64,000 bases of DNA from Perkinsus olseni. Taxonomy: Eukaryota. A program made the position numbers and the translations under genes. The DNA lies in NCBI GenBank assembly GCA_013115125.1, contig JABANN010000112.1, forward strand, positions 1 to 64,000. The letters are read 5' to 3'. The notes beneath the pieces were generated by a model that saw nothing but the letters and a program-made list of their open reading frames with translations, searched no databases and was not told where the DNA came from. Positions within the stretch are counted from its first letter, which is position 1. Each line of letters begins with the position of its first letter. This document shows positions 52,035 to 53,890 of this stretch, piece after piece.

Positions 52035-53890
52035 TCACACAAACTCGACCTGAAGGAGTGATAGATTTACACAAAATAAGCGAGCATCAATCCTCGATTC
52101 AGTTGGTCCAGAACCGCACGGAGCTAGACGAATTTTGGAAGACTAGCCAATGACGATTTCAGATCCTTTTCACTAGGACCTATCCCAGAAAATCCGAATG
52201 AGTCCGTAGTCATTCCTCAATGACATGGTAGTTGTATTCAATAACCCTTATTGAATAGCGCGATGACGGAATGATGTGGTATCATCCACAAGAGAGGTGA
52301 ATTACCTGAGCCCCAGTGGACTCCATCTTCTTCTTGATCTCTTCAGCGTGCTCTAAAGGTACGCCTTTCTTGATAACCTGGCATTCACCAGGTGCATGAG
52401 TAGCGCACGAAAACTCATATCGATTAACCGTTTCACAACTACTAACTGTTCTGGGACCCTAGAGGAACATATGTCTATCAAAGAGCTCCAACGGACTGCT
52501 GATGTAATTGGGTAAATTATTCCGCCCCTCCTCGATCTAATACCGTTGGACATCCTTCCACCGCATCCTTCGCCTCCCGAAGGCCAAGCCCAGTGACTGC
52601 TCGGACCTCCTTGATCGTCGTAACCTAACAAATGCCATCTCCCAGATTCGAACCGGAGTCCTTTAGATTACCTTCTTCTCTGTATTGTAACTAACCAACT
52701 TGATTGTCACGACGCTCTTCGCAGGCTCTTTCTTCTTCTCGGCCGGCTTCTCCTCAGCCTCCCCACCTCCCTCCGCCGCTGTCGCTTCCCCTGAAACGCA
52801 TCACACCAACCGTCCCACTCAATTCTTATATTAACAAGGCCAGCTACCGGCAGGAGGCGAGGTCGGCTGCTGAGGAGCCCCGCCAGGCATCGGAGTGCCC
52901 ATCATCATTGGCGAGGGTATCATACCACCACCACCGAACATGGCCCCTGGATGGGGGAAGGGAGATCGGCCAGGGACACCTCCGGACCTGACAGGCCCTC
53001 TACCCCTTCACAACAGCTCATCAGATGATACTGCTATACAGCCTCCACAAGTAGTTGAAGAAAACCCATAGCACAGAACGCGTCGTTCTTGCGAACTATC
53101 ATCGCCATTTATCATGTTACGAAGTGGCGGCTTGCCTCCAAGCCCACCCCGACGTTCTTGAGGAGGGATACAACCCGAGGAGCATTCCTCATGACCAAGC
53201 GTATTCTGCTTGAAACCTAAGGTGTCACTACCTGGCAGCGAGTTTCTCCTGACATAAGTCGCAGAGATCCGCAGCTTCAATAAGCGACAATGACAATATA
53301 TCATCAACCAGTTTAATGACCTAGAAATACCCATCACGGGGTTCGAACCGGATACCATTCGATTACCTTATCAGACGGTTTTCGTTTCTTGGCTTCCCCA
53401 GGCGAAGCATCCATCTTTCCATCTCCCTTATCTTTGATTTTCGCGAAGACGTCAAAGGAAGAGTCCCTGGCCGGCGCCTCAGCGCTGAATGCTCTCACTG
53501 CCGTTAACACGAGCGGAGCCTGAAGGGGATCTATCACCAAGATTCCGCCTGTACACAAGAGCTCCAGTAAAAGCGTTAGCTTTCCCGCTGTTAAAAGTTT
53601 TCCTTATACATCGCGCTGCACACAATCAGTGATTGTACCAATTGGACTACAATCGCCAAGTCTCTCAGCACAAAGGGCGTCAGCCAACGCGCCAAGTTTA
53701 CACACAACACGCTGGCTACACACGATCAACAGACACTCAACGATCACACCGGAAGAAAAGTTGGGAAGAAGTACTTCCTGTGCACAATTTTAACGCATCG
53801 GATGAGTCCCCGCCCGCCTACCTGGTAGTATAACCGCCGAGAAATGGCAAAACAAGACCGACGGATAAGGGCTGTTGAGGAACACATCAT
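52035..53890 (-). CDS. MRPL12: Mitochondrial ribosomal protein bL12 (L7/L12), multi-exon
   Basis: Presequence [89 protein letters not shown]. Confidence 0.88.

Follow-up and report, generated by a model that had tools for sequence, protein, structure and literature searches.

Two spliced mini-introns of Perkinsus olseni in the register of a tRNA 3' part, and a dispersed family of similar pieces

The origin of new spliceosomal introns is a long-standing question, and the best-documented route is that of introners derived from transposons. Here, we analysed a 64-kb stretch of Perkinsus olseni DNA (hereafter the window), which is nuclear DNA of Perkinsus and carries, on its minus strand, a gene encoding a mitochondrial-type ribosomal protein bL12 (L7/L12). 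Two of the introns of this gene, called I1 and I2, are only 47 and 46 nt long. A first-pass annotation of the window had remarked that both share one layout, that I1 resembles the 3' part of a tRNA, and that tRNA halves cleaved in the anticodon loop might have been the template. We investigated the splicing of these two introns, their likeness to tRNA, and the distribution of similar pieces in the window (coordinates in Table 1).

The bL12 gene and the splicing of its introns

The bL12 gene consists of eight exons, separated by introns of 302, 46, 244, 57, 47, 166 and 256 nt in gene order. Once the exons are joined, the coding sequence is open over 738 nt (245 codons and a stop). Among single exons, Pfam recognises Ribosomal_L12_N in the one that follows I2 (positions 4-28 of 48, E = 1.8e-4) and Ribosomal_L12 in the one that follows I1 (positions 14-43 of 67, E = 3.5e-10, 40.5 bits for a cut-off of 25.9); the exon after the latter covers positions 40-63 of Ribosomal_L12.

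Public sequencing runs were found with the segment 52200-53800 as a query, and the contigs of four of them, derived from four studies, were compared with the window. One of these runs is recorded as RNA (X11), two are guessed to be RNA (X8 and X9) and the last is of unknown kind (X7). In the contigs of all four runs, exact gaps of 47 and 46 bases stand at I1 and I2, with GT..AG borders on the minus strand. Three more introns, of 166, 57 and 244 nt and likewise GT..AG on the minus strand, are missing from the same contigs, which extend into more exons at either end. The 244-nt intron is in addition covered by contigs of lower depth, as precursor RNA or DNA would give. I1 and I2 are both in phase 0, in the context AAG/GT...AG/GT (the slash marks the splice site), and their GT..AG removal restores the reading frame. 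They are genuine spliceosomal introns, with the very letters quoted in the first-pass annotation, whose statement that removing both restores the L7/L12 frame therefore holds.

The seven donors of the gene in the same order (GTAGGC, GTAATC, GTAGTG, GTAGCT, GTAATC, GTATTA and GTAATT) have little in common beyond GTA. Perkinsus introns in print are given as mostly shorter than 100 bp, and as 39-1622 bp overall (PMC3101222).

Likeness of the two introns to tRNA

The alignment of I1 with I2 has 35 identities in 48 columns and a score of 19, against a maximum of 12 in 5000 shuffles and a maximum of 8 in comparisons with 549 natural GTA..AG segments of the window. The common layout seen at first pass is thus real, and the likeness of the two introns is far beyond chance.

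When I1 was queried alone against the 4227 families of Rfam, tRNA was the sole match. This match is 5'-truncated and covers model positions 34-71 of 71, with 16.1 bits (E = 0.15), which is under the gathering score of 29, and with one inserted base needed. In the Rfam alignment, the donor GU of I1 falls on anticodon positions 35-36 and the following AA on positions 37-38. The register then continues with TCTAA at 39-43, AGGAC as variable loop, a T arm with all five pairs (TCCGG TTCGAAT CTGGG), the acceptor 3' strand AGATGGC, a discriminator A and, finally, a trailer TTTGTTAG. Two propositions of the first-pass annotation are borne out here, namely that I1 is tRNA-like up to the discriminator and that the donor lies where the anticodon loop would be. 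I2 can be placed in the same register, with a degraded T stem (3/5 pairs), the acceptor strand GATGGGT, a discriminator A and the trailer TTTCTAG. Its broken T stem explains why Rfam returned nothing for it at E <= 10. Read in this register, the anticodon would be xGT / GGT, i.e. Thr-like, in place of the tRNA-Phe to which the first-pass annotation had likened I1.

The window contains a single complete tRNA gene, tRNA-Leu(CAG), which served as an independent reference; neither ARAGORN nor Rfam (gathering score of 29) detected another tRNA gene in the window. In this gene, 11 nt are inserted after the anticodon loop, and the discriminator A is followed by the trailer TTGTTTCAG. We used the tRNA-Leu gene with its trailer as an nhmmer query over 128 kb (the window, both strands). 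The top non-self matches were I2 (E = 0.21), a piece in an intron of NAD kinase paralogue 2, described below (0.36), and I1 (0.7); none is significant singly, and it is the ranks that carry the argument. Both introns are among the top three non-self matches, and by these ranks they align to tRNA better than the rest of the window does, which answers the refuting condition that the first-pass annotation had set for its own idea.

We also scanned metagenome contigs with a 24-nt pattern common to I1, I2 and a third copy (19 fixed bases). Three loci were found, about the number expected by chance, and none of the three lies on a Perkinsus contig. At one locus, a bona fide tRNA-Thr(CGT), the start of the pattern coincides with anticodon position 35; another locus has tRNA likeness without being called as a tRNA. 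As the count of loci is about that of chance, only the location of one match inside tRNA-Thr is informative. A profile built from this tRNA-Thr and the tRNA-Leu scores I2 at 1.1e-4 and I1 at 1.9e-4, a result that is partly circular, as the tRNA-Thr had been fetched by an intron-derived pattern. A permuted or split tRNA gene at I1 was considered and rejected, no matching 5' strand being present upstream or downstream of I1.

A family of tRNA 3'-part pieces in the window

Besides the real tRNA gene, about 12 pieces resembling the 3' part of a tRNA were identified in the 64 kb, in both orientations. Six distinct sites carry the motif GGTTCGAAYC (9 matches when palindromes are counted on both strands), versus 0.4 expected. 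The B box GGTTCRANNCC occurs 7 times versus 1.06 expected, a count reached in 0 of 100 shuffles. A scan for T arms (5-bp stem with >= 4 pairs, loop TTCRANY, G53 and C61) returned 7 versus 1.39 expected. A-box patterns are not enriched in the window (3 vs. 3.1 expected in each of two tests). One site, at 18409, lies within the coding sequence of an RCC1-repeat gene and was set aside as a chance match. Word counts of GTAGAAAT and GGTAATC in the window are at chance level, and the remaining GGTAATC sites are without tRNA likeness.

A profile built from eight of the pieces recovers the 3' half of the real tRNA-Leu in its proper register (E = 1.4e-4). Four pieces on which it had not been trained are picked up as well, at 30970-31001 (E = 0.0055), 7137-7172 (0.089), 33495-33523 (0.096) and 88-118 (0.21).

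In tRNA numbering, the pairing of positions 27-31 with 39-43 (anticodon stem) reaches 0-3 of 5 in nine pieces, with a mean of 1.7, roughly what random bases would give. No tRNA likeness is therefore left 5' of the anticodon loop, and the 5' half of a tRNA (acceptor 5' strand, D arm with A box, 5' strand of the anticodon stem) was not seen in the pieces. With A boxes at chance level and B boxes enriched, the breakpoint at the anticodon loop proposed from I1 and I2 extends to the pieces. On the 3' side, T-stem pairing reaches 2-5 of 5 positions (mean 3.3) in the pieces placed in register, and the core GGTTCGA is the best-kept part. The loop heptamers look canonical and carry different anticodons: AAGGTAA in I1 and I2, and CTGGTAA, CGAGTAA, CGGTTAA and CTCAGGA elsewhere. 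The acceptor strands differ among all pieces, and one piece is nearest to the real tRNA-Leu (35/47). A closer subgroup comprises I1, I2 and the pieces at 30959-31004 and 33757-33810, whose flanks agree at 18-25 of 38 positions. Every piece placed in register has a T-rich trailer after the discriminator (TTTG, TTTC, ATTTC, etc.), like the real tRNA-Leu gene, and in none of them does CCA follow the discriminator.

Further observations were made on related sequences. The trailer of the tRNA-Leu gene holds merely a short interrupted T-run (TTGTTTC). On the other strand, 70-95 nt upstream of tRNA-Leu (61418-61434), a TTCGAAT loop is closed by a perfect 5-bp hairpin; the hairpin given by the T-arm scan at 61420-61448 was excluded from the family count. 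Within bL12, intron 6 (52378-52543, minus strand) starts with GTATTAGATCGAGGAGGGGCGGAATAATTTAC, faintly like the layout ATCGA-AGG...ATTT..TAC of the pieces but lacking a T loop. This start could be a decayed copy; the profile gave no match there.

Gene context of the pieces

Six pieces have a known intron context, and five of these lie directly against the 5' splice site. Three are whole introns and two stand at the start of an intron, and these cases are spread over four genes within 64 kb. To establish intron borders, a test of open reading frame (ORF) continuity proved too permissive, nearly every GT/AG pair passing it, and a codon-usage exon finder trained on the long ORFs of the window was dropped, as known exons did not stand out from background with it. 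For the NAD kinase genes, intron borders come from an exon-by-exon tblastx alignment of two paralogues, NADK1 (31022-33466, plus strand) and NADK2 (35549-38390, plus strand), which are diverged and share intron positions; their upstream regions are also duplicated (30502-30624 vs. 35190-35309).

In NADK1, a whole 53-nt intron is filled end to end by an antisense piece. Its tRNA sense, on the minus strand, reads as a CTCAGGA loop, TCGAA, AGGTC, a T arm CCCGG TTCGAAT CCTCC and a trailer ATTTCTAC. The donor of the intron, GTAGAAAT, is the reverse complement of this trailer, and the acceptor region is the reverse complement of the CTCAGGA loop. The splicing of this intron is deduced from the paralogue alignment only. 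In NADK2, a sense piece stands at the very start of the intron that follows ...DPNDPDG. This intron starts with GTAGTAG, directly followed by the piece, and the NADK1 intron at the matching place (~31160) starts with GTAATAG and is without a piece. The NADK2 piece either is a whole intron of 49/52 nt or makes up the initial 52 nt of one of 271 nt, and the frame is kept in both cases. Rfam scans anchored at the ends were used for I1, I2 and the NADK1 and NADK2 pieces, the scan of the whole window (E <= 10) being blind to half tRNAs; neither NAD kinase piece gave an Rfam tRNA match.

The fourth gene encodes a DHHC palmitoyltransferase, in which an antisense piece forms the first 48 nt of a 369-nt intron (50175 down to 49807), with the tRNA sense on the plus strand and the trailer TTCATTAC. 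The exon junction was deduced from the continuity of the HC-x2-C-x2-C motif, and the flanking exon has DHHC Pfam matches.

A GT..AG unit of 46 nt agrees with I2 at 18 of its first 19 positions and stands in antisense orientation 19 nt ahead of the acceptor of the NADK1 exon starting at ~31017. It is bounded by a direct repeat CACTG on both sides, and the preceding CT completes the loop CTGGTAA. As GTAATC is kept in this antisense unit, where no donor role is possible, it is part of the element and not a product of selection for splicing. Beyond the NADK1 stop codon (~33466), whose place is fixed by the last C-terminal exon conserved in both paralogues, there are three more pieces, all in sense orientation.

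Table 1. Features of the window bearing on the tRNA 3'-part pieces
Feature	Position	Strand	Description
bL12 gene, mitochondrial-type	52035..53890	-	8 exons; from spliced contigs, open coding sequence and Pfam
bL12 exons 1-4	53822-53890, 53367-53519, 53232-53320, 52848-52987	-	
bL12 exons 5-8	52672-52790, 52544-52624, 52306-52377, 52035-52049	-	
I1	52625..52671	-	47 nt, phase 0, AAG/GTAATC...GTTAG/GT; skipped in 4/4 runs
I2	53321..53366	-	46 nt, phase 0, AAG/GTAATC...TTTCTAG/GT; skipped in 4/4 runs
NADK1 intron	33074..33126	+	53 nt, filled by antisense piece; from paralogue alignment and frames
NADK2 piece	35688..35739	+	Sense piece at very start of intron
DHHC palmitoyltransferase intron piece	50128..50175	-	First 48 nt (GTAATGAATGC...TTTCGGAG) of intron
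GT..AG unit GTAATCGAAAGGTATCCGG...	30959..31004	-	46 nt; nhmmer match outside training set
Three sense pieces	~33495-33540, 33595-33647, 33757-33810	+	Downstream of NADK1 stop; 3' untranslated region or intergenic
Candidate 51-nt intron GTAGGA...TTTCTGGTAG	42440..42490	+	T-arm-like GCGGG TTCAATG CCTGG; end of ORF 42123-42440; gene context unproven
Weak tRNA 3'-part-like piece	7137..7172	-	AGGTC CTCGG TTCAGTT ... ATTTTT
Weak piece	88..120	+	T loop TTCTATT, trailer ATTTCTAC
tRNA-Leu(CAG)	61514..61596	+	Only complete tRNA gene in the window; independent reference

Origin of the pieces

With moderate confidence, we favour a dispersed family of fragments derived from tRNA genes, some of which made or replaced mini-introns. 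I1 and I2 belong to this family, each being wholly a 5'-truncated copy of a tRNA gene that runs from anticodon position 34/35 to the discriminator, followed by the T-rich trailer and without CCA. The splicing of these two introns, their register and the dispersal of such copies in both orientations, without 5' halves, are shown here, and their birth by insertion, the mode of copying and the roles as splice signals are inferred. The differing acceptor strands and loops, with one piece nearest to tRNA-Leu, suggest several source tRNAs. The sequences of the pieces accord with an origin from several tRNA genes or primary transcripts, but neither with mature halves nor with neutral decay from a single master copy.

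A fragment of this kind would land at an exonic AAG/GT site, or replace an old intron, and features of the tRNA would then serve as splice signals. The Thr-type anticodon loop GGTAA would become the 5' splice site G/GTAA. The GAT of the acceptor strand would supply the branch site, its A standing 14 nt before the 3' end in I1 and I2; four other bL12 introns have GTGAT or GTGAA 8-21 nt upstream of the acceptor, resembling this GAT. The T-run of the RNA polymerase III (Pol III) terminator, with TAG, would provide the pyrimidine tract and the 3' splice site. In antisense copies, the reverse complement of the trailer would yield GTAG or GTAA. The fragment may have been copied either as DNA or from a primary transcript. 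I1 and I2 are most likely sister copies, one derived from the other or both from the same source, and an excised intron might re-insert within its gene, which would give two bL12 copies without flanking duplications.

Several observations weigh against this reading. All counts of pieces come from one 64-kb window. Of the four pieces tested against Rfam, only one gives a tRNA match, and under the gathering score, and the profile that includes tRNA-Thr depends on a pattern taken from the introns themselves. Neither terminal inverted repeats nor target-site duplications of a consistent kind were found at the pieces; the sole clear flanking repeat is the 5-nt CACTG at one copy, and the AGGT at I1 and I2 is indistinguishable from the splice consensus. 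The NADK2 and DHHC pieces may be just the first ~50 nt of longer introns. The NADK2 intron at ~37557-37752 has the same codon and phase as the NADK1 piece intron and is without a piece. Since the old paralogue has an intron at the same codon, the NADK1 piece took the place of an intron that was already there, or entered it, without giving rise to a new one; this position predates the split of the paralogues, and old introns must therefore also have been replaced or invaded, or else an intron was re-gained at the same site. Lastly, zero introner families were reported from Perkinsus in the material consulted from two published screens (PMC9860276, PMC12130899), though these aimed at longer and more similar introns.

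Alternative explanations

The alternative with the most weight, which we nevertheless regard as unlikely, is that the introns are old and their tRNA content secondary, fragments of tRNA genes being neutral repeats tolerated in non-coding DNA. In a genome with introns of ~50 nt, wholly tRNA-like introns could result from insertion followed by deletion, or from replacement of an intron by another intron RNA that is reverse-spliced into a junction from which the first had already been removed. The shared position and phase of the NADK1 piece intron and its NADK2 counterpart agree with such a history. So do the donor GTA(G/A)TAG, common to NADK1 and preceding the NADK2 piece, the three pieces after the NADK1 stop codon and the antisense piece near the 3' end of an intron. 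However, the tRNA register and trailer account for I1, I2 and the NADK1 intron to the last base, and nothing of an older donor, branch site or acceptor is visible in them. Birth of I1 and I2 by insertion at AAG/GT is favoured for this reason, as no base is left for the signals of an older intron. Moreover, insertion at random into introns of 270-370 nt would not be expected to place five of six pieces against the 5' splice site, and two whole-intron copies in one gene are improbable if such introns are rare.

It is improbable that mature tRNAs cleaved in the anticodon loop were reverse-transcribed and inserted, the excised intron being a stable mimic of a tRNA half. The 5' limit of the likeness at the anticodon loop in the pieces in register, with the donor at positions 35-36, is what such a template would give, as is the absence of the 5' stem strand and the A box. 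However, no copy has CCA, and a T-rich trailer stands in its place. As this trailer is like that of the real tRNA-Leu gene, it points to a gene or a primary transcript as the template, and mature anticodon-cleaved halves, which the first-pass annotation had put forward, are not supported in that role. Its suggestion that the excised lariat mimics a tRNA half fares no better. The T stem is intact in I1 alone, and the level of T-stem pairing in the pieces gives no sign of maintenance. Fold energies are equal to those of shuffles (z = 0.45 for I1 and -0.78 for I2, and 0.11, 0.01 and 1.06 for three further introns). Copies also lie outside introns, and from antisense copies the host transcript cannot yield such an RNA.

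A role at the DNA level is quite improbable as well. In yeasts, isolated B boxes constitute extra-TFIIIC sites, and the pieces might likewise have been kept as isolated B boxes, i.e. putative sites of TFIIIC binding that would act whatever their orientation. The enrichment of B boxes, the two orientations and the well-kept GGTTCGA core would agree with this. Yet the full GGTTCRANNCC is intact in just 4 of the 12 pieces, the likeness runs far past the B box into the acceptor strand and the trailer, and the T loop is near-identical in all source tRNAs, so that sharing it needs no selection.

That two short introns share a T-loop-like motif by accident is very improbable: I2 and two other pieces do fail the Rfam tRNA model and the E-values with the single tRNA-Leu query are above 0.2, but the motif, T-arm, profile, I1-I2 and tRNA-Leu tests are all above their controls, and a dozen pieces share the same register.

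Comparison with known systems

Short interspersed elements (SINEs) derived from tRNA have a 5' tRNA head with an A box, followed by a body and a tail. The Perkinsus pieces are similar to them in their tRNA origin, their B box and their dispersed copies. They differ in that they hold the B-box half only and end in the short T-rich trailer of the tRNA gene itself. Stress-induced tRNA halves have a 5' limit in the anticodon loop; the pieces, unlike these, are copies in genomic DNA, with a trailer in place of CCA.

Introners have been described in Micromonas, Aureococcus, dinoflagellates and fungi (Gozashti et al. 2022, PMC9860276; Gozashti et al. 2025, PMC12130899). There, as here, related sequences constitute entire introns in different genes, are found at AG/GT sites and in either orientation, and bring the splice sites with them. 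The Perkinsus pieces differ from introners in their length (46-53 nt), in their tRNA derivation and in being ~60-75% alike rather than near-identical, and the transposon hallmarks of introners (terminal inverted repeats, consistent target-site duplication) are not seen in them. A tRNA or SINE origin is unmentioned in the main text of the two introner papers (PMC9860276, PMC12130899). In their supplements, with files 13 and 14 of the 2025 set outside our search, no family is given for P. olseni or P. marinus, and 9 of 9 Perkinsus assemblies have none (PMC9860276, PMC12130899). As described in these papers, introner screening looks for high similarity between the ends of introns, over at most 100 nt (PMC12130899 / PMC9860276), and units of 46 nt at ~70% identity would therefore escape it.

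Tailless retropseudogenes, as presented by Noll et al. 2015 (PMC5322556), are also partial copies of tRNAs with breakpoints in loops, and unprocessed tRNAs are among their templates. They keep the 5' part, are 3'-truncated and have target-site duplications of 8-35 nt (PMC5322556), whereas the pieces correspond to the opposite half. The retropseudogenes are reported from therian mammals with LINE-1, not from alveolates (PMC5322556).

In P. marinus, according to Kojima and Jurka 2013 (PMC3706591), Dada DNA transposons of 4.7-11 kb target tRNA genes and insert at the A-box TAGCTC. The same source describes the tRNA genes of this species as hugely amplified and linked to mobile DNA, with for example 349 copies of tRNA-Leu-CTT (PMC3706591). 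A Dada origin of the pieces was rejected: Dada inserts at the A box and the pieces begin at the anticodon loop.

We found no description of tRNA-derived introns in Perkinsus in the literature on introners, on intron gain and on Perkinsus introns. A tRNA 3'-part family tied to intron 5' ends, in both orientations and in a genus from which published screens list no introners, is new as far as the literature was searched, though known from this one 64-kb window.

Neighbouring genes and other features of the window

The window also carries two tandem, intronless genes encoding H+-translocating pyrophosphatases, at 55485-57719 and 58333-60537 (both plus strand; Pfam E = 1e-236 and 6e-235), which are adjoined by intron-rich genes. 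The protein of the first is 96% identical to a protein of Perkinsus marinus ATCC 50983, and the next-best match (76%) is its paralogue. A gene for a CRT-like transporter is present as well. Around the NAD kinase genes, a palindromic 20-mer AATCGATCACGTGATCGATT with a CACGTG core occurs at three sites (32539-32558, 33892-33911 and 35112-35131), two of which are identical; a function as promoter or terminator is possible. Inside the NADK2 region, (GCTGTT)n forms a 12-nt tandem repeat (36832-36923, plus strand). Finally, a long hairpin at 24333-24393 (minus strand) has a sub-threshold match to mir-263 (25 bits, E = 0.092, for a gathering score of 51), probably by chance.

Implications for intron gain

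The tRNA pieces found in further introns near I1 and I2 hint at an unrecognised source of introns. Tentatively, they may represent a mini-intron class found throughout the Perkinsus genome, born from 5'-truncated copies of Pol III tRNA genes or of their primary transcripts, with every break at the anticodon loop; a size of hundreds to thousands for this class is an extrapolation from the present window. Such a class would have been missed by introner screens because its units are so short and so diverged. Within the window, the NAD kinase pair is useful as an internal clock of intron turnover, and Perkinsus would suit the dating of intron gains between close species, since cultures, several assemblies and RNA data exist. 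If this origin is true, a Pol III gene would contain latent splice signals for transcripts of RNA polymerase II, any genome with amplified tRNA genes would hold ready raw material for introns, and the mini-introns of bL12 would exemplify a new route of intron birth.

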